Position numbers and translations under genes: made by a program | NCBI GenBank assembly: GCA_963753595.1 | Contig: CAVWCX010000007.1 | Location: 96,001 to 160,000 of the forward strand | Length of the DNA stretch: 64,000 bases | Direction of reading: 5' to 3' | DNA from: Candidatus Methanoperedenaceae archaeon | GTDB taxonomy: Archaea > Halobacteriota > Methanosarcinia > Methanosarcinales > Methanoperedenaceae | Shown: positions 2,596 through 29,655 of the stretch, piece after piece | Position numbering within the stretch: the stretch's first letter is position 1 | Layout: each line of letters opens with the position of its first letter | Notes under the pieces: model-generated | What the model was told of the DNA's origin: nothing | Seen by the model: only the letters and a program-made list of their open reading frames with translations | Databases searched by the model: none

Positions 2596-5500
2596 TCATT
2601 CTTCCATATTATCATTGATTAGCCATTGATAATTCGCTCCTATATCATTGATAGGCCCAAAGTGAATTCCCGTGGTATAACCAACAAGATGGTTCTGGCG
2701 TATGATCATCATCTTACCAATGTACCCATGCACTCGTATTCCATCAATATTTAACTCCCCGGTGAGGCCAGTCCGCACAACGCTGGCAAAATTGTTCTGT
2801 ATAATAAGACTATTGCAATTCCCAACGAAGATCCCGTGCCGTTCACGGGTTCCATAAGGTGGCAACAGAACATCTATATTATTGTTTATGATATGCACAA
2901 TCCCTGCACTATCGTGTGTATCGGGAGTTACCCCGCGATGGCTTATGCCAACATGGATACCCTGGATGACTCCTTTTATCCTGTTACTAATAATATTAAC
3001 ATCGCCTGCGCTGCTCCCACCGATAACTATTCCCTGCGATCCTGCTTCCACGTTTAATTTTTCAAGCTCATCATACCATATTTTGAATTGGTCATATTTT
3101 TCTCTATAATTCACATTGAGCAAAACCCGATCAGCGACATGGACCAAATGGAAGAGTAGGTCACGGTCATTTTGAACTCCTTTAGGTTCATTTTTCCTTA
3201 ACCATTCGTTCCATGCATTAACAAGTAATTCGCCTGGTCTGAACTCTACGAAACCATTGCCAGCTTCAATACGAACAACATTTGTATCCTCGAAGACCTT
3301 ATCAGGTTTTCCAAGGTGCGCTGCCGGAATCATCAGGCTTCGAATTGCAGATCTGTATCTTTCGTTCCGTAACAACACATCCAAAGGCAGACTTTCTGGC
3401 ATTTTGCTGACATTTAAAACATTGTCCTCAACATGAGCGCTCTGGACATTAATAAGAAGGATTCCCACCTGCATAAGTCCAATGTGAAGGTCGCAGTTAT
3501 GTATGTGTACGGATTCTACCAGTTTTATCTTTTCATATATGTATAGCTTCTCTGTTTTCTTATCTTCCATTGCAATGAATTTATCGGTTCTACCATCGCT
3601 GATTATTACGGATACCTCTGTTTTGGCTTGATTAAGTTCTAAAGAAATAGTAATTGTTTCAAAATATACTGTTATTTTATTTATACCAATTTTATTAATT
3701 TTTTCCATATCTTCATTAATACTATATTTTTTCTGTAGAAATTCCACGAATTCTTTACCATCGACTCCTGGAATAGCATACCAGCTAAACGAATCCCTTT
3801 TTTCATGGGGATCATAATCAACGGCATCTCGAACATTGATGCATGAAGCCGCTCTTTCAGTACCTGCAGCACAAGTAAGCTCAACATCCTTGATTGTAAC
3901 CTTAGGGCATGCACAAAAGGTAAGTGTTCCATTCAGGGAGTTCAATTTTATTTTCTTGTCAAAGCCGGCAACTCCGCTTTCACCACACATGTCTTTGATC
4001 ACGACGCTTTTACATTCTTCGAATTGGAATATTGTTTCGCCCTCGAGTATTTTGATAATTGTACCTGTGCCGCTTCCACTGATCCTGATATGCCCTTTAT
4101 TTTTTAATACAATTGGTTTATAGGTAACAAATTCACCGATCTGGAAGCATATATTTGCATCCTGCTCGTCTTCTATAGTTTTAAATACGTCTTCCCAATC
4201 TTTTCGAGGCTCGATCACATGGGTACATATGCCCTGGCGATCTTTGCATAATTTGTTCAATGCGTCCTGCACTGTTATTATACTAATGTCTTCTTTTAGT
4301 TTTTTGCAAAGATCGTCATTCTTTTCGATCGGAAGGTCATCAGCATTGAATCTACATAGCAGCGCATCGAGAATATCCTTAACCTTTGAATCTGAACTGG
4401 CAGGGATATTTAATAGAGACCTGACCGTTGGATCAGCTGTCCCGTCGCAAGACGGACGGTAAGGGATATCGCTGCTGTCCAGATTCGCAACCAGGTCATC
4501 CAGGGCATTCTGCACCGTATATGGCAGAGACATACCGGAATCGGGAATTTCATTAATATCCTTCCACCGGTCTTCTTGTATTAAGGGATCATATGGAATA
4601 TCACCGCTATCCAGGTTTGCAACGAGGTTATCCAGGGCATCCTGCACCGTATATGGCAGAGACGTACCAGGTTTGGGAATTTCATTAATATCCTTCCACC
4701 GGTCTTCTTGTATTACGGGATTATATGGAATCTCCCCGGCTTCCAGTTCGCACAGGAGGGTATCCAGCACATCCTTAACAGTTGTATTCTCTGCATCATC
4801 TTTTGGCCAACTTTTTATCTTATCTATAAGAAGCTTCTGAACTGTAGGAATATCATTGCTGGTAAGTATATTTGTACAACCAGGCGGTTTATAGGCTACC
4901 TCGCTGGCCACGCTGAGGTTTGCATTGAAACGGATAGGTATATTGACAGATTTATCGCAGGCATCACGCAGCGTTGCCTCCACCTGCTGACCCTGTGTCG
5001 TTTTGTCAAGCACCCACCTGCAGGTTGCGATTCCCTCCTCGTCTGTATAAACATCAATAAAATCTTTCGGCAATCCGACTTTACCCATGATGGTGCCTTT
5101 CCCAATTGTGATCTGGAAACGCACCTTTGCATTCGTTACATATTGTTTTCCATTGGCTACTCCGACCTGTAGATATCCGGGAAGCTCTTCACCTGGCATT
5201 GCCTCCTGCCCGTCGCCGCAGACATGGAAGAAACTGGTAAGCTCTGTCACTGCAGGGAAAAGCCTGCGGCAGTCGCTGAGAAGCTCCCATTTATTATCGC
5301 TATCTTGCTTCAGCACTGCCAGGCGGCAGTAATGGTGCCTTATGCCTTCAGGCGGCTCTGGTTTTGGTTTTTTGGTTTCATCCATTGGCCATTCAATCTT
5401 CTCTGTCGCGGTGCGGGCCGGGATCAGCCAGTAATCTCCAGCCCTGAAGCTTGTCCCTGAGAACTGCACAAATATACCATCTTCAAGCTCGATAGAATCA

Positions 5501-6528
5501 TGCCCTGTGGCAGGCTTTACTGATATGGCATCGCTTCCCATGTCCCAGCGGCGGACCTTTGGGTGTCGCTTCAAATCTCCTGAAACGGCCTGGTTCAGTG
5601 TGATTATGCGCCCTGCTACATCAGGGGACTCGGTAATGTACGTGAGAGTTCCTGCCGGATTATCTGATAATTCCGTGACATCATCCAGCACTTCAACCCA
5701 ATCGTCTGTTTTCAATGAAAGTGTTTTGTCCTTCCCGAGTTGTTTAACTTTCAGTTTGGTAAGCTTGTCATTTGTATCTTTTATAAACTCTTCGATAGCG
5801 AATACAACCGAACCGTTGTCACGCGACCATTTGAACGTTGCATCTTTAAGTTCACCACCCTTATGGATTTCTACGCGATAGAGCTGGTTTTCAAGCCCAC
5901 GGTAGCCCGCGCCCGGAGAAACACTGCATGGGTTTTTACTCGGAGTCACCTTCTTTGTGAAGGCAGTAAGCTGTGCACCACTTCCAGCGGTGATATTTTT
6001 CCATTCTTGTATGATCGGCTTGCAGTCCACCACAGTTGAAACCTTATAATCCTTTAATGGGTTAAGTTTCACCTGCCAGACCGTTTTGGTTCTTGTGGAT
6101 GTATCCGGTCCCCCAAGTGCGACTTCGCGGATCTGTGGGTCTTCTATCGCAGTCATGTGGCGTTGCCATACATCCAGGTATGCCAGGTAAACACCCTCAC
6201 CGGGCAAATTGGAGAAACCAGGCAGATCATCCTGATCTAAGATATTGATATCTATGGAATTCTCACACAGGATTCCATCTACGTAGATTCTTCCCTCAGA
6301 TATTGTCAGGTTTTCTTTATCAGACGTAGGGTCTATCTTGAATCCACCGCCATCTTGCGGCGCACCGCATGGTCCAATGATATCGAGTGCTTCTTTCTCG
6401 ATTCGGTATGAATTTATATCGTTCTGTTCATTCCAGTCGGCATCAAGCTGGACGCGCCCCTGCTGCATGCGGACACTGCTATAATTTTTTTCAGGTTTAA
6501 ATGTGGATCGTGTAAAATCGCCTTTCAT
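2596..6528 (-). CDS. DUF6519-like eCIS protein (candidate fibre/adhesin) with internal repeats and a C-terminal beta-helix-like region
   Basis: True start is probably MKGDFTRSTF (ATG at 6528, GGAGG upstream). Motifs QQGRVQLDADWNEQ and ENQLYRVEIH..G...TFKWSRDNGS; Ig-like segment GDGQEA; C-terminal repeats of the I..N.I type. Confidence 0.8.
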   Translation of the reverse strand: MKGDFTRSTFKPEKNYSSVRMQQGRVQLDADWNEQNDINSYRIEKEALDIIGPCGAPQDGGGFKIDPTSDKENLTISEGRIYVDGILCENSIDINILDQDDLPGFSNLPGEGVYLAYLDVWQRHMTAIEDPQIREVALGGPDTSTRTKTVWQVKLNPLKDYKVSTVVDCKPIIQEWKNITAGSGAQLTAFTKKVTPSKNPCSVSPGAGYRGLENQLYRVEIHKGGELKDATFKWSRDNGSVVFAIEEFIKDTNDKLTKLKVKQLGKDKTLSLKTDDWVEVLDDVTELSDNPAGTLTYITESPDVAGRIITLNQAVSGDLKRHPKVRRWDMGSDAISVKPATGHDSIELEDGIFVQFSGTSFRAGDYWLIPARTATEKIEWPMDETKKPKPEPPEGIRHHYCRLAVLKQDSDNKWELLSDCRRLFPAVTELTSFFHVCGDGQEAMPGEELPGYLQVGVANGKQYVTNAKVRFQITIGKGTIMGKVGLPKDFIDVYTDEEGIATCRWVLDKTTQGQQVEATLRDACDKSVNIPIRFNANLSVASEVAYKPPGCTNILTSNDIPTVQKLLIDKIKSWPKDDAENTTVKDVLDTLLCELEAGEIPYNPVIQEDRWKDINEIPKPGTSLPYTVQDALDNLVANLDSGDIPYDPLIQEDRWKDINEIPDSGMSLPYTVQNALDDLVANLDSSDIPYRPSCDGTADPTVRSLLNIPASSDSKVKDILDALLCRFNADDLPIEKNDDLCKKLKEDISIITVQDALNKLCKDRQGICTHVIEPRKDWEDVFKTIEDEQDANICFQIGEFVTYKPIVLKNKGHIRISGSGTGTIIKILEGETIFQFEECKSVVIKDMCGESGVAGFDKKIKLNSLNGTLTFCACPKVTIKDVELTCAAGTERAASCINVRDAVDYDPHEKRDSFSWYAIPGVDGKEFVEFLQKKYSINEDMEKINKIGINKITVYFETITISLELNQAKTEVSVIISDGRTDKFIAMEDKKTEKLYIYEKIKLVESVHIHNCDLHIGLMQVGILLINVQSAHVEDNVLNVSKMPESLPLDVLLRNERYRSAIRSLMIPAAHLGKPDKVFEDTNVVRIEAGNGFVEFRPGELLVNAWNEWLRKNEPKGVQNDRDLLFHLVHVADRVLLNVNYREKYDQFKIWYDELEKLNVEAGSQGIVIGGSSAGDVNIISNRIKGVIQGIHVGISHRGVTPDTHDSAGIVHIINNNIDVLLPPYGTRERHGIFVGNCNSLIIQNNFASVVRTGLTGELNIDGIRVHGYIGKMMIIRQNHLVGYTTGIHFGPINDIGANYQWLINDNMEE
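4463..4730. repeat. 132-bp (44-aa) tandem duplication inside the DUF6519-like gene
   Basis: IPY.P.IQEDRWKDINEIP..G.SLPYTVQ.ALD.LVANLDS.D occurs twice; DNA offset is 132 (cagggcat at 4501 and 4633). Confidence 0.9.
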
Positions 6529-6547
6529 ATAATTACCTCCTTTTTTA

Positions 6548-8686
6548 TCAAGTGACATAAAATATACCAGCCTCAAGTCCGACGCGCATGTATTCCTCAA
6601 GGCTTGCGCGCAGGTTTGCCTCCCGCTGTGGCTGTTGTAAATGGTGGAATACACCCATCTCTGCCTCATCTTGTGCCCCCTCCCGGATCTCTACAGGGCA
6701 TTGCAAATATAACTGGGCATAACCGGGGTGACCGTAACCCAGGTCTGTAAAGATTGGTTTCAGCCGTACCGCTATTTCATTTTCAATTTGATTCCTTATC
6801 TTCTCCTCAAGTTCTTTCTGTTCTTGAGGCGTCATTCCCGATTTCTTCTTCAGTGCAGCATCAAGCTCTTTTTTTACGGCGTTCTGTATTGCAGTATCAG
6901 AGTTCTTTATTACAGTATCAGGCTGGCAGCGGTACTGGCGTGGAACCTTTGATCCTTTCGGGAAATAACTGAAACGCATACATCCTTCCTGGTTTCTATC
7001 TGCAATCACTTCTCCTGTAAAAATGCTGTTGCTGCCGAGCTTGAAGGACTGTACCGAAACGTTGCCAAGGACGGTGCTCTCTTCTATGACAACCGAAGGA
7101 CCTTTAATTGCAGAACCGCCTAACCCGTCTATAATACTGTCCTTGATAGATAAACGGTATGTACCTTCAAGATTAAGGCTCCCTGTAATAGACCGGTTGA
7201 CTGTAACATCAAGATGTAAATTTCCCTTGAGCGATTCCTTTCCCACAGATTTGGGAGTGGAATCAATATAAAGGTCAATCCCGGGTACCAGGGTGGAATG
7301 CAGCACTTGCAGAGACCCCAGGTCGCCGTCAAGGATATTTATATTGCCACCTGTGATTAGTAATCCGTCGATTATCATCTGACCGCCAGGCTGGTCTTTT
7401 TTAGCTTTATCCCCTTTGATGGTGAGAGTGCCAGCCAGGCGAATGATCGGACGCTCTCCATTGTCTGCCCTGATTTCAAGCGTTATGCCTGCTGGTATGT
7501 TAAACTCAAGTTTTGTATCTTCTTTAAATATATTGCTGTCTTTTATGGAAAATACTGCATCCGGGCGTTGATCTGCCTCCCAGGAAGAGATTGCATCTTT
7601 AATAGTATTTATAAACCCCGGTGATTTAGCGATATTATACTGCTTAATACCTGCATTGGTCTGCCTTATGCCTGTACGGCGGTCGTAAAAACCACCGCCT
7701 ACCTCGCTGCTAAAGCCGTAATAATATGTGACCTGAACATCTGATGGTGGAACCGCGTATGAAAAAGCTATTCGTCCAAGGACCGGATCAACTGCGACCA
7801 TACCATCCGGCGGCAGGTGTTCCCAACCGCTCAAGTCGCAGGGGACTATCTCATCAGCCGGGATGTCCCTGCCGTCTGCCCTGATATGGATGCTTTTATC
7901 CTTACCATAGTATAATTCCTTAGAGGTATAAAAAGCCCGGCGGCGTATCGGGGAAGGTACGTTTACCTCCCCGGCAAGATGGGTGGGGTTTTGTTCTGTC
8001 ACCGGATGGTTGAAAAGCTGGATATCATTGCCAAGCTGGCTGAAACTGAACCGCCCTTTACTGTGCAAAAACGCCGGTGCCTCTCTCACCGGGTATGCCT
8101 GCAAGCGCCACAAATATATGCCGATATTCATGATGTTGTATTTTCCCCTCCTGTTCTCAATATGGCGGACTTCGGCTGTATGGGCGACAGTATCAAAAGG
8201 AGTATCAAGAAGCTCTAATTTTTCACCATCGCGTATATCAGGCGAACGGTGATTATCCAACCGTATGTGATTGATATATTGCGTGGTCCCGAGCAGTTTG
8301 AAGAACTCAACTACCCTTGCATCCCATCCTGTTGTATCATGCGCCAGTTGCTCAAGCATCGAGGCTGTGCCTTTACGCCTGCGGTAACCCAGTGTATTTG
8401 CGACCCGGGCGCGCTGGCTGAACGTAGCTTTTTCGCTGATGGGATGAAGGTTCCTCACGCCCAGCAGGTTACCAATGTAGGGTACGACCCACTCGTCGCA
8501 GGTTTCTATGAACCAGTTATCGTAGAGCCGGGCAATATCCTCATCCATCACATCAGCCTGCTGTGCGAGGACTTCCATGAATGCCTTCAGGACTTCTCCA
8601 TTCTCTGAAACTTCTCCGTTCTCTGAATCACGGATCCTGTAGATTGCGGGCAATAACTGGTAAAGTTTATCTGCGCTGTAGCTCAA
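6548..8686 (-). CDS. baseplate wedge / tail protein I-like eCIS protein
   Basis: LYQLLPAIYRIRD, YDNWFIETCDEWVVPYIG, RRKGT motifs; sits downstream of the two baseplate J genes. Confidence 0.75.
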   Translation of the reverse strand: MSYSADKLYQLLPAIYRIRDSENGEVSENGEVLKAFMEVLAQQADVMDEDIARLYDNWFIETCDEWVVPYIGNLLGVRNLHPISEKATFSQRARVANTLGYRRRKGTASMLEQLAHDTTGWDARVVEFFKLLGTTQYINHIRLDNHRSPDIRDGEKLELLDTPFDTVAHTAEVRHIENRRGKYNIMNIGIYLWRLQAYPVREAPAFLHSKGRFSFSQLGNDIQLFNHPVTEQNPTHLAGEVNVPSPIRRRAFYTSKELYYGKDKSIHIRADGRDIPADEIVPCDLSGWEHLPPDGMVAVDPVLGRIAFSYAVPPSDVQVTYYYGFSSEVGGGFYDRRTGIRQTNAGIKQYNIAKSPGFINTIKDAISSWEADQRPDAVFSIKDSNIFKEDTKLEFNIPAGITLEIRADNGERPIIRLAGTLTIKGDKAKKDQPGGQMIIDGLLITGGNINILDGDLGSLQVLHSTLVPGIDLYIDSTPKSVGKESLKGNLHLDVTVNRSITGSLNLEGTYRLSIKDSIIDGLGGSAIKGPSVVIEESTVLGNVSVQSFKLGSNSIFTGEVIADRNQEGCMRFSYFPKGSKVPRQYRCQPDTVIKNSDTAIQNAVKKELDAALKKKSGMTPQEQKELEEKIRNQIENEIAVRLKPIFTDLGYGHPGYAQLYLQCPVEIREGAQDEAEMGVFHHLQQPQREANLRASLEEYMRVGLEAGIFYVT

Positions 8687-11600
8687 AGTCTCATCTCCGT
8701 TAATTCGATTCCCCCGGGATTCACGGTAAGGAGTTCGGCAAGTATTTGCCTGCTATTATCCAGACTTGCAATACCGGCTCCCAGGTAAGCTTTCAGCGCC
8801 GGCATATCCCCTTTCAGGTAGAGGGCATTCAGATCAACAGCTATAACCCCTTCTACTCCCTGCATTACTGCAAGCACCTCGCTCTCAGTGACCGCCTGCC
8901 CGAAGCTGCGCTGCTCGAATGAGAATGCCTGCTTCAGAACATCAGTGATAGCAACCAGGACCTTCTCTTTAATGTACCTGCTATCCACCTGCACACTTGC
9001 AGACAGGTTGAAGAAGAGTGGATTAAAAGAATCTATGCGGAACTGCTGTACAGGGTCCTTGGCTCCCTTGATACCAAGCCAGAGGTTCTTATATAGTTCT
9101 GACATCTTATCGACCATCCCTGCATCGGCTGAAGCGACGGTGATATGTACGAAGTGCACCTCGCCATCCCGGAGCCATGCAGCCCGGGCTTTTCCGATAC
9201 CGGCGAAGGCACGGGTAAAATCTTCAAAATCCTGCAATGATACGATGCGGTCAAGCGTGAGTACTTTCTGGGGCGCATTCTGTTTCGCCTGGTCGCGGGT
9301 TTCGGGGTCAGCTGCCCCTGTAGGAGCAAGTGGGTTAATAACTCCTTTCACACCCAGGGGGCGTGTCATCAGGAGGCTTAACTGGTTCGCTTTGACCATA
9401 CCCTGCATTCCGATACCAGTCCTGTAAGTAGCTGTAATATTTTCCTGCCCTGAAGTAAGCCTTGCTCCATTTTTTCCATCACCAAAGGTAAGGGTAGTAT
9501 TACCGTTATCATCTATGCGTATGATATGACCCTGGATGCGCGCATCCAGCCCGTAAAGGGAAGGCACTTCCTGCCATTTTACATCGTTTACCCTTACCTC
9601 AATTGTGCTTTCAGTGCCGCTTGGGGTCTTTGCAGATACATAGGTAAGAGGTTTTTTAAGCATAAAATGCTGGTTCGCCCGGGCACCGCTGCCGCTTCCC
9701 AGCACTTCGCGCACTGTTTCGCCGTGAGTGGCACGCGCCACATTGGCATAGATAGTCACTGTGGCGGGGTCATAGCAGTTCTGCATCCTCTGCTTGAGGA
9801 CAAGAATGGTTCCCGTTTCTGAGATCCCTTCAAGCTCTGCCGCTTCGCTGACAGCCGTATCCTGCGGTGCTGCAGGCATCTGCAGGATACTATCATGAAG
9901 TGCGGTCACCGAACCTGTGAATCCGTCCCTGTCCATCAATGTCCAGCGCAAATCAGTACCAATTTCAACCTGTGGCTCCAATACCTGGAGCACATCTCCT
10001 GGCCGGATGGTTTTTACTCTCTCGCCATCGGAGGATACAAGTTCAAGCCCGGCCCGTGTAACAAGGGCACGCATCCGCTTGCCGCTGATAATAAGGATCT
10101 TGCCTTTGTCAAGCCCGGATACAAGGTTACCAAGTTCAATTTCATTACCTGACAACAAATCGGTGCGCGGCGTTTCGGCAATGTCAAGTTGCTCGCTCTG
10201 GGCGAAGACAATGGTTTGCCGAAGATTATCAAAGTTATCAGAAATTTCTTCGTGTAGGGTCACCCGCGTTGTTTTTCCTGTCAATGTGAAATTGGATTGC
10301 GAATCTTCCACCACATTTTTAATTATATAAGGTTCTTTGTAATATGGAGAAGATAAAATCAACCAACTGTCTGGTAATATCTGCTGATAGACAGCATCTA
10401 AAAAAATATTCTTCTTATCCTGTGAGATTTTGAATCCTGGCCATTCATCGTATTTCTGATAAAAATCAGGTCGATAAAGATTAGCTTCAGGAATAATCTC
10501 ATTCTTATTATCGGGAGTTTGCCAGGACAGTTTGATTATCCCCTCACCAATACCTATGTGATAGTATTCCAGCTTAATATCGTAAATTTGTCCTTTCACA
10601 AGCGATATCGTTGCGCTGTCTTTTGTAGATCCGTGATCCGTCCAGTTATTGATAATCAATTTGCCATCCACCCATAACCTGGTCCCATCATCAGATTGAG
10701 TGTAAAACGTGTAGATCCCGGTAAACTCAGGCTTAACAAAACCTGTCCAGCGAGCTGAGAAGTTATTAAAGTTGACGGCAAGATCAGGAGAACTTGTACC
10801 CTGCCAGTTCACCTGAGTTTCTCTCTTTATCACTTTTGGACTTACCACATTTGGATTGATATTATTAAAATATTCTGCATACAAGCCTGTATCGCTGTTT
10901 GAGGGATTTATATAGTTTTTTTTAACATTGGCCGGCATTGTACGCCAGTCAGGTGCATTATATCCGAAAATGGACGCACGCAAACGAAAAGCATATATCT
11001 TGAGTTCCTCTTCCGTCGTTGTCAGTTCTTTATTCCAGGTTGCCTGTGTGCATCCAGCGGCTATATCAGCAGTAACGGCCTTCACTATTCGAAAATTGGG
11101 ATCACTGCCAGGGTACTTACCCATAAAGAGAAGGCCGTCCCCGGGTTTCAATCTTGTTGCGGTGCTTTTGAGATAAACCTCTTTGCTGCCCATAACCGGT
11201 ATTTTCTTCTCGGTCAGTCTCGGTTTCAATTCATTCCATGCCGCCCTTGCCTCTATCTTTTCGATAGTTTCAAAGGTCTGTGGTTTCTCGTTCTGCCCGG
11301 GAATGCTCATTACCTTTACACCTGTATCAATGGTTGCATAGCCCGGCGTGCCCGGGGCATTATCCAGGGTAAACGCCAGGAATGTACTTGCTGCAACACC
11401 GGGCTTGAGTTCATACCCGATGGCGCGGGCAAGCTCGATCACCGAACTTCGCTCAACAGCCGTGAGAAGGTTGCCCTCATTTGCAATTCTTTCCTGGTAA
11501 AAAGTGAGCACATCAAGCACGCAAGCCCATGCATCGATCAAAGCAATGGACGGATCGTCATCTTCCCTGATGGTCAATCCGCCAAGAGCCTTCAGGCTGG

Positions 11601-14696: not shown

Positions 14697-15053
14697 TTAC
14701 ATCACTCTCTTAAATTCATCGACATTGCTTTGCTGGTTACTTCTGACCTTATACCGCACTTTAACGCTCACCGTACTGTCCTCGCCTGTAACCTGTACAT
14801 CTTCGACCAGGATCAAATCCCCAAGCCACTGCTGTAAAGCACCCTGTACAGTCAGTTGCACGGCTGCTGTCAGCATGTCGCTATTGGGAGCAAAGACAAG
14901 CTGCAATAAGCCGCTCCCGAAAGTTGGGCGGTTGACCCGTTCGCCGGGTGAAGTGAACAGCACCTGCTCAATAAGATCGCGGATGTGCTTGGTGTCATCA
15001 GCACTGGCAGTACGCCCGCGGCCATCGAAATGGAATGGATAGTCTATGTTCAT
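14697..15053 (-). CDS. gp25/gpW-like baseplate protein
   Basis: IEQVLFTSPGERVNRPTFGSGL..LVF motif. Confidence 0.92.
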   Translation of the reverse strand: MNIDYPFHFDGRGRTASADDTKHIRDLIEQVLFTSPGERVNRPTFGSGLLQLVFAPNSDMLTAAVQLTVQGALQQWLGDLILVEDVQVTGEDSTVSVKVRYKVRSNQQSNVDEFKRVM

Positions 15054-17156: not shown

Positions 17157-17165
17157 AGAATCCTT

Positions 17166-17468: not shown

Positions 17469-17473
17469 AATAT

Positions 17474-18121: not shown

Positions 18122-18234
18122 GGTTGGGTACTCCTTTTTGTGATTTTATTAAAATGTTCGTAAAAATTTCATCAGTCGTTATCATATTTACCATTGTTTG
18201 GTGCATGGAATGCACCTACCTCGCTACAATGGCC

Positions 18235-20865: not shown

Positions 20866-21128
20866 CGTTTCAATCCCCCATAAACTGCCCTTCCCGTCTT
20901 TGCTCCGATCACTTCTGCACTAGAATCTGATGTGATCTTGAACTCCATGCCGTTAAGTCCCTCAATCCTGCCTCCCCGTTCCAGCGATGGCGGCACTCCC
21001 TGCTCTGTAAACAACCGGGATAACTCGCGTTCAACAGCCTCCCCTATACTCCGGGAGTCACTTCCTGCAAAGCCGTCCAGTACAAGTTCTTCAATATTAA
21101 GTTCAATATTCTTTGGTCTCATACCCAT
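20862..21128 (-). CDS. small eCIS-associated hypothetical protein
   Basis: IELNIEELVLDG ... AVERELSRL; lies between the ATPase and DUF4157 genes and overlaps both. Confidence 0.7.
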   Translation of the reverse strand: MGMRPKNIELNIEELVLDGFAGSDSRSIGEAVERELSRLFTEQGVPPSLERGGRIEGLNGMEFKITSDSSAEVIGAKTGRAVYGGLKR

Positions 21129-23131: not shown

Positions 23132-24384
23132 GGTATTTTCACCTTTGGGTTGGTGTACTGGTTATAAGTCGGGCTGCTCTCATTGGTATCAGTAATAAGC
23201 TGACTCTGCGCACCGTCCACCTGTACACGCACAAGATAATCGGAAGCCTTCACACCGCTGACAGAGATTTCAATTGTGGATTTATCTTTATCGCGCGATT
23301 TATCAACGAAGGTGTATGACGCTGCATCACCGCCAGATATCTTATTCAATAGCAAGACCACACGCTGGTTCTTGCCGATTATCGGGTTGATTATTATTGT
23401 CAACAATGCCGAGCGCAGGGCGGTGCCCGTCCCTTTAAGATTGGATATCGTGACTTTAGTAATTGATGGATGCAGCACAAAGGCTACCAGATTTGACTCT
23501 ACACCTTTATGCGGAACAGGCGGCGTGCCCATAAGTATCTGGTGTATTACCTGTAAACCCTGCACGCCTGCTTGCAGGCCGACCGGAAGCGGTATCGTAA
23601 TTTGCCCCTCGTTTGTATCTGTAGGCGTTATTTCGATCCCGTTAACTCTTGCCAGCGTAATATCCCCCCGCAGCTTTTTGCCTTTGATAATCAGCGTGCT
23701 ACCTTCAACAATGGGCATATCGGCACCTTTCGATGAAATGACCTGTTCAACAACCGGCTGGTGAAAAGGTACAACGTAGAGGTTGCGTTCGCGTACTGGA
23801 AGAGTGCTCTGGGGAGATTCATCGCTTTCTATCAATACGACCGTGGCAGTGTAGGCTAAAGATAAGCGATATGGAGTCTGGAAAAAGACTGACCAGAGCT
23901 TGGATAGCTCCTCCAGGGATAAGTGAACAGGAGTAAATTTAATAGTTTCAAATGCGTCTGCGAGGTTGGAGCCTTTCAGGATATTGTTATAAAGAGTGTC
24001 AATTATTGTATCCTTAATCATCTGGCGCGTAAGAACGGGTCTGGCATGTAGAGTGCGAACGGCACTACCCAGCAGTCTCTGCGTTTCCAGATTTAAATCA
24101 TCGCCATAGAACGTCAGCAAATAGTGCAGATCAAGGGCCACCTGCGGGCGTTGGACAAGCCTTCCTTCGGAGCTGCGGTCAGGCATATTGATATTACGCA
24201 TCGAAGCATTCGGGGTAACCTGGTAAAGGTAAAGATTGGCACCTTTTGTCGTTATTCCGGTGCCCTCTGGCCTGACCGTTGATACTTTTGATCCGGGAAC
24301 GTCTATAATCAGGGCAGCTTCTAAAGTTCTTCGAAGAGAAGCCGTTACAGTAGCTATAGCCAGAAAATTACTCATAACAATCAT
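23128..24384 (-). CDS. DUF4255 (Afp16/Pvc16-like cap) protein with C-terminal Ig/IPT-like domains
   Basis: SNFLAIATVT, NLYLYQV..N..RN, LDLHYLLT, EELSKLWS.F..PYRLS..Y. Confidence 0.85.
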   Translation of the reverse strand: MIVMSNFLAIATVTASLRRTLEAALIIDVPGSKVSTVRPEGTGITTKGANLYLYQVTPNASMRNINMPDRSSEGRLVQRPQVALDLHYLLTFYGDDLNLETQRLLGSAVRTLHARPVLTRQMIKDTIIDTLYNNILKGSNLADAFETIKFTPVHLSLEELSKLWSVFFQTPYRLSLAYTATVVLIESDESPQSTLPVRERNLYVVPFHQPVVEQVISSKGADMPIVEGSTLIIKGKKLRGDITLARVNGIEITPTDTNEGQITIPLPVGLQAGVQGLQVIHQILMGTPPVPHKGVESNLVAFVLHPSITKVTISNLKGTGTALRSALLTIIINPIIGKNQRVVLLLNKISGGDAASYTFVDKSRDKDKSTIEISVSGVKASDYLVRVQVDGAQSQLITDTNESSPTYNQYTNPKVKIP

Positions 24385-25643
24385 CCATTATACTGTTTCA
24401 GGTAATCATCAAGGGAGAGAATCGGGCGCTGCTTTGGAGGAGGAGACTGCAACTGCGGTGCCTGAGGTGGTGTTACTGCCTTAACTTCTATACGGCCGAT
24501 GGTTACTTTTACAATCGGTACTGTTGAAGGCGGTCTTGGTGCAACAGCATGCTGATCAATTAACATATTCCCCTTCTGCTCCAGGGTTGCATTGACATTC
24601 GGTTTATTCATTCGATCAGGATTTTGCCTGCTGGCAATTAGTGAAGGTGTATCAAGATGCGGATAATCAGCCCGATAGAAATCGGTCCCGGATGCAGGCT
24701 CACTATTCTGCAGGATATCCCCACCGTTCTTCATGCTTGAGAAACTTTCATGTAGCAGGCTGGAATCCGATATGTGCCCAATGAGCGTCTTAGCAACAGG
24801 GTTATCTTCAATATCTATCAAAGGCTCGTTTTGCCAAGTCTCGCCTGTGTTTTTGCTGCCTGGGTGTTTGCCGGCAGATAAATTCTCATAAGGTAATTCC
24901 GGATATCTTGTAATATTATTCTCATAAGGCAATTCCGGATATCTTGTAATATTAGTTCGGTTGTTATTTCGGTTCTTTTGTATACCCACCGGATGCGAGG
25001 GCTTAGACACCTCTAAAGAACCGGTTTCAGGGTTTTGAGGCGGTTCTTTATCAAAAATCGGATTCATCATCGAAATAGTTTTCCTGTTTTCACGGGCATC
25101 AGCAAAATCCTTATGCTCCGGTTCAACATGCACCTGAGAATCCGGTCCAGGGGAGTGAAACTGCTTTTCATATTTGACATATCCTGAAGTATCGGAATCA
25201 ACCTGGTGAAGAAGTCCTTTATCATGAGCCAGCTCAGGAATACCGTTTTGATTAAGCAGCTCAATATTATGCGGCAGCCTCGATATAGAAGTTAAGTCTT
25301 CCGGGCTTCCCCGGCCCTCTATCTGATAAGAGTGTTTCGCACCATCCTTGTCCCGGGAACCGGATTCAACATACTGAACTGGAACATGCTGGTTATCAGG
25401 AATTTTATTTAATGACTTTTTCTGTGTTGGCTGACCATTATGTTGAGACTTAATTCCGGTTTCCGGGGCACTTTCGATATATATACTTTCCTGATTGCTC
25501 ACTTGTTCACTATCACTGGCTAAATCCTGTATGTAATCACTCTCTCTCGCAGGCATCGGAGCAAATACAGAACCGATTACAGGCCGGGCTACAGGCATCA
25601 AACCATACGCCCGTTCTACTAATCTTGAGAGAAAATCAGGCAT
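24381..25643 (-). CDS. largely disordered eCIS-associated protein
   Basis: Conserved-looking termini (DFLSRLVERA; VKVTIGRIEV...LSLDDYLK) around a low-complexity core. 36-bp tandem duplication at 24882-24953. Confidence 0.7.
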   Translation of the reverse strand: MPDFLSRLVERAYGLMPVARPVIGSVFAPMPARESDYIQDLASDSEQVSNQESIYIESAPETGIKSQHNGQPTQKKSLNKIPDNQHVPVQYVESGSRDKDGAKHSYQIEGRGSPEDLTSISRLPHNIELLNQNGIPELAHDKGLLHQVDSDTSGYVKYEKQFHSPGPDSQVHVEPEHKDFADARENRKTISMMNPIFDKEPPQNPETGSLEVSKPSHPVGIQKNRNNNRTNITRYPELPYENNITRYPELPYENLSAGKHPGSKNTGETWQNEPLIDIEDNPVAKTLIGHISDSSLLHESFSSMKNGGDILQNSEPASGTDFYRADYPHLDTPSLIASRQNPDRMNKPNVNATLEQKGNMLIDQHAVAPRPPSTVPIVKVTIGRIEVKAVTPPQAPQLQSPPPKQRPILSLDDYLKQYNG

Positions 25644-26368
25644 CAGGTCACCATCCCGAGGTAAAACTGGCGCCGGGTATCACTCATCGACAGGATATCC
25701 GATTCACGCCAGCCATATGCCTGGGCAAGCGCATGGACATCATATAGCAATCGTCTGGCATGTGCGCTGAGTTCCGACCAGAAATAGGACACGATATCAA
25801 AAACCATCTGCCACTGATGGCCGCATTCGGGGCAATGGAGATCCAGCATGATCTCTGCCTGGGGATCGTGTTCTGCCATATGTGCTGAAAGTTCAGCCTT
25901 GACATGTGCGGATATGTCGCAGCAACCCACAGGAACCCCATCGCGAATAACCTGAAGCACACAGCGCTGTACCAGCAGGTCACTTGCTGTATCCCTTAAT
26001 CCTGCAACAGCAGCAAGGTCCAGGCTGTTTGGCAAGCGATACCTTAACACGAGATTCCCATTTGTAAGCTCCAGTTCCTGTTTATTTCCAGGTAGGGGCG
26101 ATAGGCGAATATCTGTTGTCTTTATGGTGAACTCCAGACGCTCCTTACATCCCGGACATTCGGCAAAACAGTTAAGTTTTGGGCCAAAGGTCAGTTCCCT
26201 GAGCGCCAGGAGGTATGAGTCCCGCTGCCCAATACTCAACTCAGCCAGTTTATCCCTGGTCATGCCAGGGATCACGGCAAGAAGTAAGGTCAGAGCTTTG
26301 TCCATATGATGCTGGACTTGCCCCTGCTCCCATACCTTCAGAATATCGGGCGCGAACAATGGACGCAT
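25643..26368 (-). CDS. T4 gp26/gp51-like baseplate assembly protein
   Basis: Two CxxC pairs (CPGC, CPECG); VHALAQAYGWRESDIL.MS..RRQFYL. Confidence 0.75.
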   Translation of the reverse strand: MRPLFAPDILKVWEQGQVQHHMDKALTLLLAVIPGMTRDKLAELSIGQRDSYLLALRELTFGPKLNCFAECPGCKERLEFTIKTTDIRLSPLPGNKQELELTNGNLVLRYRLPNSLDLAAVAGLRDTASDLLVQRCVLQVIRDGVPVGCCDISAHVKAELSAHMAEHDPQAEIMLDLHCPECGHQWQMVFDIVSYFWSELSAHARRLLYDVHALAQAYGWRESDILSMSDTRRQFYLGMVT

Positions 26369-26371
26369 TGT

Positions 26372-26896
26372 TTAGCTCGGTTCCAGATATGTCGGTTCTT
26401 GGGGTTCAGCCACTTCATAATCCCGTTCCCAGCCTTCGTTCTCAAGTTTAATTGTCTGTATAGCTACAGCATTTGTGCTGGCATCCAGCCCGGGCAGAGC
26501 CTGGAATTCGGAAACCCAGCAGCGATACACTTTATAAGCTATTGCGAGTTGTCCTGCCTCGTTGTAGACTTCGATTATAATGTCTTTTCGGAAGTCCTTG
26601 AGCGAGACCTCACTTCCCAATCCCGACCCATAGTTCCAGACTTTATTTGTCCACTGTTCGAATTCTTTGTCATGGGTGACACCGCGCTCCAGGGTTATGG
26701 CATCGTACTTGGTCTGCCCTGGTGATTTTCTCTCTGTGCTTGGGTCGCCTCCCTCCCGGTAGGTCACGGGAGTGTTAGTGCGCTTCAGGGCGCCAACCTT
26801 GTTTACCCCGGCTACGTAACGGCCATCCCACTTAACCCGGAACTTGAAACTCTTATACGGATCGAAACGCTGTGCATTTACACTAAACTGTGCCAT
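26372..26896 (-). CDS. tail tube protein (T4 gp19-like)
   Basis: DPYKSFKFRVKWDG, YREGG, PGQTKYDAITLERGVT, AVAIQTIKLENEG. Confidence 0.95.
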   Translation of the reverse strand: MAQFSVNAQRFDPYKSFKFRVKWDGRYVAGVNKVGALKRTNTPVTYREGGDPSTERKSPGQTKYDAITLERGVTHDKEFEQWTNKVWNYGSGLGSEVSLKDFRKDIIIEVYNEAGQLAIAYKVYRCWVSEFQALPGLDASTNAVAIQTIKLENEGWERDYEVAEPQEPTYLEPS

Positions 26897-26908
26897 ATTT
26901 TTTCCTCC

Positions 26909-29173
26909 TTATGTCTGTATGTTACCGGCTATTTGCTGAATCTGGATGATTACAAACTCTGCCGGTTTAAGCGGGGCAAAACCCACCACGATGTTGACAA
27001 TACCTTTGTTGATATCATCCTGAGTTGTTGTCTCTTTATCGCATTTTACGAAGTACGCCTCTTTTGGCGTTTGTCCCTGGAAAGCGCCCTGGCGGAAGAG
27101 CGAGTGCATGAAAGCCCCCAGATTCAGGCGGATCTGTGACCAGAGGGGCTCATCGTTTGGCTCGAACACCACCCATTTTGTGCCCCTGAACAGGCTTTCC
27201 TCAATGAAAAGAGCCAGCCGTCGTATAGGGATATACTTGTACTCCGATGCCATCTGGTCCGCACCGCGCAATGTACGGGCGCCCCAGGCAACTGCGCCGA
27301 AGACCGGAAAGATGCGTATACAGTTGGAGCCGAGTGGGTTAAGCGTCCCGTTCTCCATATCGGTTAATTGATATTTAACGTCCTTTACTCCAACCAACGT
27401 GGCATCCGTGCCTGCAGGAGCTTTCCATACCCCGCGTGAGCTGTCCATACGTGCATACAACCCCGCGACCGTGCCGCTTGGCGGGCATAAACGTACTTTG
27501 CCACCCTTTAATGGGTCAGCTATCCCGATCCATGGGTAGTAGACTGCTGCATGATCCGATTTCGGAAGTGCCGTGCCTGAGATAACACTGACCATTTCTG
27601 TTGGATTCTTCGTAATAAGGGGTGCATCGATAATCATGAATGCACGCCGCTCCTGGCAATATGAGACGGCATCAGCCAAAATACCGCTGTCAGTGACCCC
27701 TGGAAGGCAGAGCAGGTTGAATATATCAACCTCTTCCAGGGCGTAGATACCATCGCGGTCTGCCCGGCTGGCAATGTATATATTATACGCCTCGGCATCG
27801 GTAAAGGATTCTTCATTACCGTCCGCCAGTGTTAAATTCGTCGCATTTGTTCCACCTAATAGAAGTTTTAATCCTTTAGCCAGACCGTCACCCGTGACCT
27901 CATTAACCATTACTGTTGAACCTGTCCCCGTGCTTCCTGAAGACAGTATCAATTTTGATGCAGAGGAAACGGTACAGGTGAAATTCATGTAACTGGGATT
28001 GGATGTTTTAAGTGCACATACACTAGTCTGGATACGCTTTGCTATATCCTGCAGGTTAGCTGCTGATGTTGTACTTATATCAACTGCATCAGGACCGTAG
28101 CCGTCTATGCTTATGTAGAAGCTTCGGTTGCCGAGACTGGGCAGCCCAGGAGGTCCGGTCAGATCAGTGGCACTCAATACGCCGCTGGTCAGAGTTCCAT
28201 GATCAGGGACTTCCACAGGTCTGATCACCGAAACTGCATCAGTCTCTTGTCCACCATTTACGGTTCCAAGCTTTAACCTGCCTGCAGCATCGTTTCGTAT
28301 GCCTGCTAGCACACGCACACTGGATGCCTCTTTCCCTTCGCCTGAAGTCATTATAATACGATTTTTATCTGTATTGGGGACACAAGTAAATAGGGACTGG
28401 GCGGGATTTCCATTAGCTATACCCGCATCCCTCACTTTCTTCTGGATCGCACTGCAGAGCTTGGTTAGCTTGGCAGCCGGATCCCCTGCTACATCAGTCG
28501 GCAGGGTGATTTGCACGCTTATAGGTTCTGAGCGATTGACCGATATAAGCAACTGGTTGTGAGTAGCATCCAGTAATGGTTTACTCAGTGTTGGATCCAG
28601 ATCACCGATTTCGCCGCTTATGCTTGTTCCATTGCCCAGGCCCGCCAGATCATGAACCCGTTCAACTTCTACCAACCGCGAAGCACCCTTCAAAATGTCA
28701 CCAACGTAACGCGCATCTTTACTGTTCATCGAGAGATCAAGATACGTCTCATCGCCAACAGCGAGGTTGAATGTACTGGCAGGATTAGCGGTTTTGTAAT
28801 CTACCCGAACTTCAATATCATTACCTGTTTTACCCTCGTCCAGGGCTGTTATCTTAAGCACATCTTTACCGGTACTGTTTTGCAGAGTTTTTGTGGCTGC
28901 AACTGCATTCTTAGCTACTCTCACAACCCAGGCATCGCTTCCGCCGTTGGAAAAAAACTGGCGCACTGCATAGCTCATCTCCGAATCCTCAAATAAACCT
29001 CCAAAACGGCGTTCAAAGTCGCTGTAGCTCAGGATATGGATCGCTTTATTTATCGGACCTCTCTTAGCTGATCCGGCAAAGGCTGTTACCGAGGTGCTGA
29101 CCCCCACAATAGTCCGCACACCACTGGGAATTTCCTGGACATATACTCCTGGATAGGTTGGATTAATTGGCAT
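26909..29173 (-). CDS. contractile tail sheath protein
   Basis: YPGVYVQE, RGVWKAPAG, WGARTL, YIPIRRL, WVVFEPND, GFAPLKPAEFV. Confidence 0.96.
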   Translation of the reverse strand: MPINPTYPGVYVQEIPSGVRTIVGVSTSVTAFAGSAKRGPINKAIHILSYSDFERRFGGLFEDSEMSYAVRQFFSNGGSDAWVVRVAKNAVAATKTLQNSTGKDVLKITALDEGKTGNDIEVRVDYKTANPASTFNLAVGDETYLDLSMNSKDARYVGDILKGASRLVEVERVHDLAGLGNGTSISGEIGDLDPTLSKPLLDATHNQLLISVNRSEPISVQITLPTDVAGDPAAKLTKLCSAIQKKVRDAGIANGNPAQSLFTCVPNTDKNRIIMTSGEGKEASSVRVLAGIRNDAAGRLKLGTVNGGQETDAVSVIRPVEVPDHGTLTSGVLSATDLTGPPGLPSLGNRSFYISIDGYGPDAVDISTTSAANLQDIAKRIQTSVCALKTSNPSYMNFTCTVSSASKLILSSGSTGTGSTVMVNEVTGDGLAKGLKLLLGGTNATNLTLADGNEESFTDAEAYNIYIASRADRDGIYALEEVDIFNLLCLPGVTDSGILADAVSYCQERRAFMIIDAPLITKNPTEMVSVISGTALPKSDHAAVYYPWIGIADPLKGGKVRLCPPSGTVAGLYARMDSSRGVWKAPAGTDATLVGVKDVKYQLTDMENGTLNPLGSNCIRIFPVFGAVAWGARTLRGADQMASEYKYIPIRRLALFIEESLFRGTKWVVFEPNDEPLWSQIRLNLGAFMHSLFRQGAFQGQTPKEAYFVKCDKETTTQDDINKGIVNIVVGFAPLKPAEFVIIQIQQIAGNIQT

Positions 29174-29186
29174 TTCAAATCCTCCT

Positions 29187-29300
29187 CTATATTATAGCAT
29201 CCGGTTCATTTTTGTCTTCAACTGTCATTGTTCGGATTGCCGGAATTCCCAGCATTCCAGGGACGTTGATATACAGCGCCCATTTCATCATTTTCTTCAT
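29187..29300 (-). CDS. 37-aa ORF directly upstream of the sheath gene (micro-protein or truncated gene)
   Basis: MKKMMKWALYINVPGMLGIPAIRTMTVEDKNEPDAII; GGAGGT RBS; its stop codon abuts the sheath RBS. Confidence 0.45.
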   Translation of the reverse strand: MKKMMKWALYINVPGMLGIPAIRTMTVEDKNEPDAII

Positions 29301-29343
29301 ATTTTTACCTCCGTTTGATAATCCATAGAATTTCTATTCTGTT

Positions 29344-29655
29344 TCAAAGTCTTTTAAACGCCTCAAGTAGTATCTCGCGATCTGACAAAATCCCCCTCGA
29401 CTTCAACCGGTCAACCTCCAGGAGAAGTTTCTCAGCATCCTGGCTATCAAGTTTATTCTTTTCAGCAAATCTCTTTGTCAATACTTTCAGTTCTATTCTG
29501 GAAGAATACTTCTTGGGAATCGTATCATCAATAAAATTGAATATATGCCCGCATTTATGATGCCCTATCGTTGAAGTTGACGGACCTGCGGAAGTTCTTA
29601 TGTAATCCCTGAAAGTATCACCTTTGATAATCTCTCCACACTCGCATATTAACGT
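29344..29655 (-). CDS. 103-codon Cys/His protein starting at ACG (non-canonical or mutated start); first gene of the eCIS operon
   Basis: Manual translation: (M)LICECGEIIKGDTFRDYIRTSAGPSTSTIGHHKCGHIFNF...EAFKRL*. GGTGGTG lies 5 nt upstream of the ACG; an in-frame TAA lies just upstream. Confidence 0.55.
   Translation of the reverse strand, partial: TLICECGEIIKGDTFRDYIRTSAGPSTSTIGHHKCGHIFNFIDDTIPKKYSSRIELKVLTKRFAEKNKLDSQDAEKLLLEVDRLKSRGILSDREILLEAFKRL

Follow-up and report, generated by a model that had tools for sequence, protein, structure and literature searches.

A complete contractile injection system operon with a candidate nuclease cargo and a putative leader-RNA control module at a tRNA-Met hot spot in a Methanoperedenaceae archaeon

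We analysed a 64,000-nucleotide stretch of the genome of a Candidatus Methanoperedenaceae archaeon (contig CAVWCX010000007.1, positions 96,001 to 160,000; hereafter the window, in which coordinates are counted from its first letter) and found a single contractile injection system (CIS) operon of 18 abutting or overlapping open reading frames (ORFs), all on the minus strand, from 29173 down to 2596. We read the locus as a functional CIS of the extracellular CIS (eCIS) or phage-like protein translocation structure (PLTS) superfamily, lineage II and IIa-like, which lies on an acquired island, carries a nuclease cargo and acts as a released particle; for this reading as a whole, we consider the chances evenly balanced. 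The CIS itself, of a kind already reported for the genus Methanoperedens, is not new, because such clusters have been published for all groups of anaerobic methanotrophic archaea (ANME) as well as for this genus. The present analysis adds a regulatory cassette, formed by a leader element and a small gene that we call zr, a cargo assignment and the hot-spot context, together with the placement of the sheath and a DUF6519 fibre. To specialists the CIS will be unsurprising; the regulatory cassette may surprise.

Chadwick et al. 2022 (PMC9012536) describe PLTS clusters from every ANME group and distinguish two versions within ANME-2d; an ANME-3 CIS is described as horizontally acquired (PMC12180501). 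All Lake Cadagno Methanoperedens metagenome-assembled genomes carry eCIS (PMC12246660), and eCIS occur both in Methanoperedens and in its jumbo extrachromosomal elements (Shi et al. 2026, PMC13444090). In the accessible text of this ANME CIS literature, we found no description of the sheath lineage, tRNA-Met hot spot, DUF4157–AHH cargo, zr or leader presented here; its gene-map figures (PMC9012536 Fig 17, PMC13444090 Supplementary Fig 23) may overlap with them.

Operon proteins were assigned by profile matches to Pfam, NCBIfam and PHROGs. In the order of transcription, the genes are as follows (aa, amino acids; E values after the family names):
26909–29173, minus: sheath (Cis2/Afp2-4-like), 754 aa; Phage_sheath_1 1.6e-10, Phage_sheath_1C 9.6e-10, phrog_23 tail sheath 2.2e-60
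26372–26896, minus: inner tube protein, 174 aa; Phage_T4_gp19 4.9e-44, TIGR02241 8.4e-43
25643–26368, minus: T4_baseplate (PF12322) protein with a Cys-rich motif at its C terminus, 241 aa; Pfam 7e-15, phrog_150 baseplate hub 2.6e-13
24381–25643, minus: Pro-rich low-complexity protein, 420 aa; without a match in Pfam, NCBIfam or PHROGs
23128–24384, minus: tail terminator or cap (Afp16/Pvc16-like), 418 aa; Pvc16_N (the DUF4255 of the first-pass annotation) 6.8e-47
21119–23131, minus: AAA+ ATPase (Afp15-like), 670 aa; AAA 4.2e-28, WHD 6e-21, phrog_10401 3.8e-87
20862–21128, minus: conserved accessory protein, 88 aa; no family match
18235–20865, minus: DUF4157 (eCIS_core, HExxH) protein, 876 aa; eCIS_core 7.3e-31
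17474–18121, minus: tube-initiator-like protein, 215 aa; CIS_tube 9.3e-5, at 22.7 bits below the cut-off of 27
17166–17468, minus: baseplate protein, 100 aa; only phrog_7145 'baseplate wedge subunit' 5.2e-5
16020–17156, minus: spike hub, the gp27/gpD-like half of a split VgrG, 378 aa; VgrG_rel positions 15–339 of 547, 1.3e-9
15373–16023, minus: spike, the gp5/gpV-like half of the split VgrG, 216 aa; Phage_base_V 9.2e-24, VgrG_rel positions 377–543 of 547
15053–15376, minus: PAAR-like spike tip, 107 aa; DUF4280 3.4e-5, at 24.8 bits just below the cut-off of 26.3
14697–15056, minus: gp25-like baseplate wedge, 119 aa; GPW_gp25 1.2e-17
11754–14696, minus: Baseplate J or Afp11-like protein, copy 1, 980 aa; TIGR02243 5e-92, Baseplate_J 2.6e-8
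8683–11757, minus: Baseplate J or Afp11-like protein, copy 2, 1024 aa; TIGR02243 7.2e-63, inserted PA14 8.6e-30 (residues 289–424)
6548–8686, minus: P2 gpI or Afp12-like baseplate wedge, 712 aa; Tail_P2_I 1.2e-4, above cut-off
2596–6669, minus: DUF6519 (eBAP5) tail-fibre candidate; DUF6519 1.4e-69, likely start Met at 6528 (1310 aa)

Gene content and integrity are directly observed. None of the 18 ORFs contains an internal stop, which agrees with the first-pass annotation, made from the sequence alone, in its description of the core ORFs as uninterrupted. The profile searches in all three libraries confirm the CIS families, and with them the parts named in that annotation other than LysM, a name that no library supports; the ORF at 17166–17468 has no Pfam match, LysM included, at E ≤ 10. 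The gene that had been called gp26-like has the profile identity T4_baseplate together with phrog_150, and its gp26 label came from no search. The locus had also been taken to extend to 29655, which covers an extra small ORF (29344–29655, zr below) without an ATG, GTG or TTG start; the CIS operon itself ends at 29173.

The sheath has conserved N- and C-terminal parts separated by a variable insert of ~270 aa, and the sheaths of relatives range from 505 to 1065 aa with conserved ends. Pfam offers no family for three operon ORFs (420, 88 and 100 aa). Compared with its counterparts in two genomes of our collection (G057 and G060), the 420-aa protein is conserved only at its termini (residues 1–29/46 and 364–420), and bacterial loci show a gene-sized gap at the equivalent position; its gene holds two 36-nucleotide (nt) in-frame tandem repeat units (24882–24953). 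G013, G057 and G060, as well as Nostoc and Anaerolineales loci, have homologues of the 88-aa protein encoded beside the ATPase. The tube-initiator-like protein shows 46–60% identity and synteny in bacterial loci, the PAAR-like tip is 51–57% identical to those of Achromobacter and Anaerolineales loci, and the spike hub also matches Phage_GPD (6.8e-5), at 22.6 bits below the cut-off of 30.1. Three 75-nt (25-aa) in-frame tandem repeat units lie within the gpV-like spike gene (15438–15662). The order sheath, tube, PF12322 protein, variable gene, cap, ATPase, DUF4157 protein, initiator, wedge, gpD, gpV and PAAR recurs in G013 and, where the sequence extends far enough, in the bacterial loci.

Sheath, gp19-type tube, gp25 and baseplate J genes, the core by which eCIS are defined, are clustered here, with Pfam and NCBIfam matches above the cut-offs. 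The spike is represented by Phage_base_V and by two ORFs that together span VgrG_rel, with the PAAR-like DUF4280 match just below its cut-off, and the eCIS markers Pvc16_N, Afp15-type AAA+ ATPase and DUF4157 are all present. These components match the definitions of Chen et al. 2019 and Geller et al. 2021, and so the earlier statement that such a gene set defines eCIS/PLTS loci holds. According to Chen et al. 2019, two afp11 genes occur in subtypes IIa and IIc, afp8 consists of two ORFs in IIa, IIb and IIc, afp10 is lacking only in IIb, divergent afp12/afp13 genes are found in IIa and IIb and are absent from most IIc and IId loci, and archaeal loci belong to IIa and IIc. The operon displays the IIa traits of two afp11 genes (TIGR02243 twice), a split afp8, an afp10 (DUF4280) and afp12/13-like genes (Tail_P2_I, DUF6519). 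On these published gene-content criteria, the locus fits eCIS lineage II, subtype IIa.

Upstream of the sheath gene lie the following features:
29187–29300, minus: 37-codon ORF with a good ribosome-binding site in the interval between zr and sheath, from ORF reading
29344–29655, minus: zr, 103 codons, Zn-ribbon-like; CxC...HxxC in the N-terminal half, three C-terminal helices
29708–29757, minus: leader element, a hairpin with kink-turn (k-turn) sequence features; alignment A5, covariation, covariance model R1
29760–29800 (approximate), minus: promoter-like stretch, with an alternating A/T TATA-like run followed by a CAT-N4-ATG half-palindrome, by eye

The 5′ module of promoter-like stretch, leader and zr stands ahead of the CIS operons that we examined in the genus, and of sampled loci from two further families, whatever their sheath lineage. 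The linkage of zr and the leader to CIS loci is observed directly, and the small gene and folded RNA leader look like a common archaeal control module, to judge from their sequences. We put forward the wider proposal tentatively, with a slight lean towards doubt: CIS operons of unrelated sheath lineages, some of them shared with bacteria, would in archaea of the class Methanosarcinia all stand behind one archaeal control cassette, comprising a promoter like those with a B recognition element (BRE) and TATA box and with a palindrome, a k-turn-type hairpin and the class-restricted zr. If so, a machine that moves between domains would have captured a host-domain-specific regulatory module; and, should L7Ae or zr bind the hairpin, a contractile injection system would here be governed post-transcriptionally by a k-turn switch.

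Fifteen zr upstream sequences share the TATA-like run, the CAT-N4-ATG palindrome and the 50-nt element, the first two as seen by eye. Nineteen copies of the element align readily as two helices around an invariant G-A ... U-G-A-A-A-C. Pairing is retained in 90.8% of the cells, against 83.3% in shuffles (0/500 as high) and 27–59% in slid controls, and covariation scores 0.257, shuffles giving 0.138 (0/500 as high), with changes on both sides in four of the eight pairs; RNAalifold recovers the same helices. The layout comprises a C-helix with a terminal loop, a 3-nt bulge, tandem G:A/A:G pairs and an NC-helix. Columns 23 and 32 form G:C in 19/19 copies, G21, A22, G36 and A37 are invariant, and the bulge reads GAU in 12/19, AAU in 4/19, UAU in 2/19 and UGU in 1/19. 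By sequence only, this agrees with the k-turn consensus of archaeal l7ae mRNA leaders, which consists of C-helix, bulge, tandem G:A/A:G and NC-helix (Huang, Ashraf and Lilley 2019, PMC6298567). The l7ae leader k-turns (Daume et al. 2017; PMC6298567) resemble the element in their low intrinsic stability and in their position close upstream of a ribosome-binding site; they differ from it in that the element precedes CIS operons rather than l7ae, has C:G at -1b:-1n and carries one extra A on the bulged strand.

With the covariance model, this genome yields a single strong copy (6.9e-14; next match 0.05). Across the genus, 56 copies occur in 33/49 genomes, and 50 of the 56 stand directly before zr or upstream of a sheath gene; none was found in 79 bacterial sheath loci at E ≤ 0.01. 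Rfam contains no such family, a search with 29150–29900 at E ≤ 10 giving one chance-level internal ribosome entry site (IRES) row. Six copies have no zr or sheath match nearby (G016:C17, G017:C13, G014:C8, G062:C258, G010:C65 and G053:C151:9329), and G016 and G017 have no such match at all. In short-sheath loci the element often occurs twice, ahead of zr and again ahead of the following block of genes, as in G011:C57 (11886 and 11406).

A contig titled Methanotrichaceae and a further family of the order have zr homologues just upstream of the sheath gene; none was found in the bacterial CIS loci searched. Of the 49 genomes in the genus sample, 32 contain zr and 32 a sheath (both in 29, zr only in 3, sheath only in 3, neither in 14). 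Among 301 genomes drawn from the class, 83 have both, 14 zr only, 16 sheath only and 188 neither, counts in which related genomes are not independent. Once 20 partial zr rows and 9 partial sheath rows had been excluded, 61/100 full-length zr places in the class lay within 15 kb of a sheath match, 60 of those 61 upstream on the same strand. Across the class, CIS loci with sheaths of different lineages begin with zr (the window, L005, L017, L105, L107 and L109–L116). In a phylum-wide draw of 401 genomes, zr occurs in 17, all within three families of the window's class, and in 0 of the ~330 genomes outside that class, a sample whose haloarchaeal share was not checked. In seven genomes (G136, G222, G096, G242, G094, G169 and G206), zr lies 21–37 kb from the sheath match, on the same strand and on the far side, which suggests a second arrangement because this distance is about one operon length.

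The zr start position in the window is ACG, 5 nt past a ribosome-binding-like GGTGGTG. Thr stands at this position in 9/31 rows of the zr alignment (A3), and ACG may therefore not be a defect. Pfam holds no model for the zr family, whose homologues are named 'hypothetical' only, and an AlphaFold model of zr (mean predicted confidence, pLDDT, 74) has no fold match at E < 0.15. NrdR and TFIIB-type Zn-ribbon were considered as fold identities; they were the best Foldseek rows at E 0.15–0.3 and were rejected as not significant. Literature searches and the accessible text yielded no mention of zr or of the leader element, for which there is no established name to search by. For the 37-codon ORF, tblastn against the collected CIS loci matched the window copy only.

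The 876-aa DUF4157 protein is the candidate cargo. It consists of an N-terminal DUF4157 domain, a Gly-rich and hydrophobic helical middle with weak matches to tape-measure PHROGs (residues 328–581), a Pro-rich linker and a C-terminal domain at ~740–876. Only the DUF4157 domain is conserved in relatives, which have one to three such genes per locus. The last ~140 residues match 76 cluster representatives at E ≤ 1e-3, 47 of them at E ≤ 1e-10, and in most of the full-length proteins among these the match lies at the C-terminal end. We aligned 40 of the 76 with the window protein, giving 41 sequences; 28/41 match Pfam AHH (PF14412) at E ≤ 0.01 (best 2.7e-8), and 23/41 match eCIS_core (DUF4157). 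H756, H757, N782, H790 and H811 are invariant in all 41, including the conserved His-His, Asn and His that we take to be the catalytic signature of the AHH family. Leads from the Atlas point to the same toxin clan. The DUF4157 protein thus probably ends in a predicted AHH-type HNH/EndoVII nuclease domain, and we read it as cargo because of this domain and because DUF4157–linker–toxin fusions are described as typical eCIS-associated toxins (Geller et al. 2021).

The last operon gene is, by its profile match, a DUF6519 fibre candidate; DUF6519 is eBAP5, a fibre baseplate-attachment domain (Levy and co-workers, PMC12923769). For the C-terminal ~500 aa, the Atlas gives leads, and leads only, to Beta_helix/NosD clusters and one Uroviricota cluster at scores of 0.88–0.91. 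The fibre has no sequence relative in the PDB, and its C-terminal 334 and 634 aa have no Pfam match at E ≤ 10 bar one chance-level row. Its gene contains two 132-nt in-frame tandem repeat units (4460–4723). The predicted fibre and the PA14 domain in the second J copy suggest that the machine binds surface glycans of its target. A Kyte–Doolittle scan of 25 ORFs, in which the haloarchaeal six-helix anchor Hbor_38620 was not itself used as a query, revealed no operon ORF with more than one hydrophobic 19-mer and thus no multi-pass membrane protein of that kind; two hydrophobic segments occur only in a 265-aa neighbour (31016–31813) that belongs to the conserved flank.

The operon lies beside a tRNA gene, as the first-pass annotation had stated:
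2132–2241, plus: tRNA-Met (CAT anticodon) with an intron after the anticodon loop; Rfam RF00005, 58.5 bits, and sequence reading
ARAGORN misses this intron-bearing tRNA-Met, which the Rfam tRNA model detects. The neighbouring aroA and the tRNA are conserved in 44/49 genomes of the genus. In 7/7 close relatives (aroA 89–93% identical), DNA homology with the window stops at 2242–2243, one base past the tRNA, and none of the seven has CIS genes in the 6–18 kb beyond it. Five relatives scanned with Pfam (loci among L093–L100) each bear different genes past tRNA-Met, such as the defence-type AbiEii, SIR2 and UvrD/PD-(D/E)XK nuclease genes of G057 and the SNF2/SWIM and Toprim genes of G004. The 3′ side of tRNA-Met is, on these comparisons, a hypervariable spot in the genus, with the tRNA 3′ end as its apparent left edge. 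On the other side, homology with G004 resumes by about 30148. The related CIS copies of G013, G057 and G060 sit in other genomic contexts. G+C content at third codon positions (GC3) is 0.509 for the 18 CIS genes and 0.407 for 19 other window genes (Mann–Whitney p = 4e-6). A horizontally acquired island of ~28 kb appears to be the best explanation for the CIS, because of this atypical GC3, the homology break at the tRNA and the nesting of the sheath in a mixed clade (below). The 29-nt tRNA 3′-end pattern occurs only once at ≤3 mismatches, so that no attachment (att) repeat was found, and a repeat search over 2000–30600 revealed no flanking direct repeats.

Outside the operon, we scanned 24 ORFs of at least 100 aa out of the 36 listed, plus aroA; the ORFs omitted mostly overlap larger ones. 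The flanks consist of archaeal housekeeping genes, including EPSP synthase, M24 peptidases, eIF-6 and HMG-CoA reductase. Among the 18 operon ORFs and these 24 others, all within the 64-kb window, there were no capsid, terminase, integrase, lysis or type VI secretion system (T6SS) membrane-complex families, which bears out the earlier remark that head, packaging, integrase, T6SS membrane and lysis genes are missing; holin and endolysin genes are likewise absent from the window. The flanking archaeal core genes are 89–93% identical to those of seven other genomes of the genus, and the closest named sheath and zr homologues are labelled Candidatus Methanoperedens, a genus of ANME-2 in the order Methanosarcinales. 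These data support the host named in the first-pass annotation (Methanosarcinales, probably ANME-2d).

The sheath C-terminal domain is present in 32/49 genomes of the genus, mostly in a short type (~510 aa) that is only 42–50% identical. Full-length relatives at 74–82% identity are Methanoperedens-labelled, and the next full-length sheaths, 58–70% identical over the whole length, come, where named, from bacteria of many phyla. The tube protein is 78–83% identical in 9/10 bacterial loci compared, and gene order and sequence are common to the window and the bacterial loci across the extent of their 10-kb flanks. A first sheath tree (94 rows from a quick search, LG+G4) was followed by a second of 92 rows, in which 21 archaeal rows of the class were added and 24 earlier rows were omitted together with L126, whose start could not be set. 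In both, eight short-sheath archaeal rows (support 100) stand apart from one large clade. In the second tree, this clade has 84 rows, 55 of them bacterial and 25 archaeal, with many Chloroflexota, and the window sheath groups with G057, G013, an Anaerolineaceae row, a Nostoc row and a Pseudomonas/Achromobacter group (support 95). By these trees, the window sheath belongs to a mixed bacterial–archaeal clade, separate from the genus's common short-sheath type. The lineage appears to move repeatedly between domains, because well-supported branches of the second tree force at least ten changes of the Bacteria label. A bacterium-to-archaeon direction of transfer, considered on the first tree, was dropped once the 21 added archaeal rows made the clade a mosaic. 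Ratios of nonsynonymous to synonymous substitution (dN/dS) for sheath and ATPase are 0.09–0.12 between the window and G057 and G013, with dS near saturation; sheath and ATPase are, on this estimate, under purifying selection among the copies of the genus.

From these data we infer assembly, cargo loading, target, release and regulation as follows. The promoter, k-turn-like leader and zr probably control expression, which would start from one archaeal promoter and pass through the leader and the small zr protein. A baseplate would form from gp25, the two Afp11/J proteins, the Afp12-like wedge and the split VgrG spike with its PAAR-like tip, and would nucleate the gp19-type tube and the sheath; the Pvc16-type terminator would cap the structure, and the AAA+ ATPase would aid assembly. 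The N-terminal domain and helical middle of the DUF4157 protein would place the cargo in or on the tube or spike, with the AHH-type nuclease as the toxic part. Binding to glycans on the target-cell surface would fall to the DUF6519 fibre, whose end is possibly a beta-helix, and to PA14 in the second J protein; contraction of the sheath would then push spike and cargo into the target cell. A free, released particle would thereby attack neighbouring microbes. We favour release because the only sensible place for PA14 and the fibre is the cell exterior and because the operon showed no anchor protein; on its own, we put this step marginally short of an even chance. It is the weak step because the nearest solved relatives are not released and no release genes were found.

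Several observations weigh against this reading. The closest solved sheaths are PDB 9EZM (1.3e-80), 8BKY (1e-76) and 8BL4 (6e-74), ahead of the Afp and Photorhabdus virulence cassette (PVC) sheaths (PDB 6RAO and 6J0B, 1e-45 to 2e-50). All three come from systems that are not released: 9EZM from the T6SS-like CIS that the haloarchaeon Halogeometricum borinquense keeps bound to its membrane (Zachs et al. 2024, PMC11566945), 8BKY and 8BL4 from the CIS in the cytoplasm of Streptomyces (Casu et al. 2023, PMC10066040). The CIS gene set behind the first-pass eCIS reading stands; 'extracellular' was an assumption. In addition, a related Chloroflexota lineage is reported to have an intracellular CIS (PMC12998442), and there are no lysis or release genes at the locus. 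A run search with 20000–29900 listed no RNA sequencing run with the locus (eight DNA rows, best 0.24 of words). As for the cargo, the C-terminal part alone matches Pfam AHH at E = 0.037, its 14.5 bits lying below the cut-off of 22.3 (model positions 18–109 of 111); the predicted nuclease-domain fold (pLDDT 81) matched no solved nuclease, with nothing from Foldseek at E < 0.8, a best VIA Z of 3.9 and no hit in a PDB profile search; and no immunity gene follows the nuclease gene. The fibre's C-terminal ~500 aa may form a right-handed beta-helix, Atlas scores being the sole basis for this. Finally, zr lacks a canonical start codon (ATG, GTG or TTG) in this genome, and the minimum free energy of the leader hairpin is not exceptional (z = -0.89).

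An unlikely mode, though one to be taken seriously, is that the machine remains cell-bound and T6SS-like, sitting at the inner face of the cytoplasmic membrane and firing through the surface layer (S-layer) on contact, as in H. borinquense, to deliver the nuclease into consortium neighbours. The best solved sheath match is to that very system, whose cluster likewise has two cis11 genes, cis12 and cis13 (PMC11566945), and whose authors call the methanogen and ANME clusters unexplored. The lack of lysis genes agrees with this mode, and a nuclease effector suits contact-dependent antagonism. On the other hand, the haloarchaeal T6SS mode correlates with a conserved six-helix membrane protein beside the cluster (PMC11566945), whereas operon ORFs here have at most one hydrophobic segment. 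PA14 and a possibly glycan-binding fibre would face the producer's own cytoplasm, the toxin is not followed by an immunity gene, and zr was not met with outside the window's class in the phylum sample, with the caveat on haloarchaea given above.

We hold it improbable that the CIS follows the Streptomyces mode, also proposed for Chloroflexota, in which a cytoplasmic machine fires inside its producer and mediates development or cell death under stress. The second and third solved sheath matches are to the Streptomyces system, many Chloroflexota rows fall in the large sheath clade, an intracellular CIS has been reported in that phylum (PMC12998442), and the missing immunity gene would be irrelevant if producer and target were the same cell. 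The Streptomyces clusters nevertheless lack a tail-fibre gene and belong to IId, with one afp11 and an unsplit afp8, whereas the window has a 1310-aa DUF6519 fibre, PA14, two afp11 genes and a split afp8.

A recently imported, unexpressed or decaying island, whose particles are no longer made in the host, is more improbable again. It would accord with the atypical GC3, the ACG at the zr start position, the other genomic sites that it occupies in close relatives and the failure of the run search to list RNA; against it stand the 18/18 intact ORFs, a dN/dS of ~0.1 between copies in three genomes of the genus, the archaeal-type promoter-like sequence and leader in front of the operon, and the recurrence of Thr at the zr start. 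A defective myovirus prophage tail module or R-type tailocin deserves next to no credence: the structural genes all descend from phage tails and match PHROG tail families, and the locus adjoins a tRNA, but Pvc16_N, the Afp15-type AAA+ ATPase, DUF4157 and DUF6519 are eCIS markers, the 64 kb hold no capsid, terminase, integrase, holin or endolysin gene and no att repeat of the tRNA end, no head or packaging genes adjoin the related loci examined, and the pyocin sheath matches only at 2.9e-7, against ~1e-80 for CIS sheaths.

Elsewhere in the window, ~10 kb from the island, an IS605-type TnpB (OrfB_IS605, Cas12f1-like TNB) and an adjoining DDE transposase (DDE_Tnp_1_6, DUF772) occupy 39155–42009 on the plus strand. 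Further along, 52389–57396 (plus) encodes a 964-aa protein with a weak MXAN_6640 HExxH metalloprotease-like match alone, followed by a 703-aa M28 peptidase.

Methanoperedens and other ANME live in tight consortia and control methane release, and their dealings with neighbours are an open question; the ANME CIS clusters are listed in the literature, and Zachs et al. 2024 (PMC11566945) name them, with those of methanogens, as unexplored, none having been studied. The locus offers several handles: a complete cluster on a 182-kb chromosomal contig, an assayable candidate DUF4157–AHH nuclease cargo, a fibre and PA14 domain that point to glycan targets, and a conserved leader RNA and small protein that could explain the timing of switch-on. 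CIS machines are known to pass between bacteria and archaea, and the mosaic sheath tree fills in this picture.

Among systems with solved structures, the H. borinquense CIS (PMC11566945) shares with the window locus an archaeal S-layer host, two cis11 genes, cis12, cis13 and toxin delivery. The match to 9EZM is limited to the conserved sheath ends, the window sheath being 180 aa longer, and neither the six-helix anchor gene nor toxin–immunity pairs are seen in the window operon. The Streptomyces CIS (PMC10066040, subtype IId) is alike in belonging to lineage II, for which DUF4157-type genes are typical; that subtype has a single afp11, an afp8 in one piece and no fibre, whereas the window locus has two afp11 genes, a split afp8 and a large fibre gene. 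With Afp/PVC, which represent eCIS lineage I, the locus has in common a core of sheath, tube, spike, gp25, J, ATPase and cap. It differs from them in having one long sheath gene rather than three, with much more distant sheath sequences, in lacking a recognizable Afp14-type tape measure, and in carrying no toxin genes at the operon 3′ end, its candidate cargo lying mid-operon instead. Compared with the published ANME and Methanoperedens clusters, as far as their accessible descriptions go, the locus comes from the same host group and represents the same kind of gene cluster.

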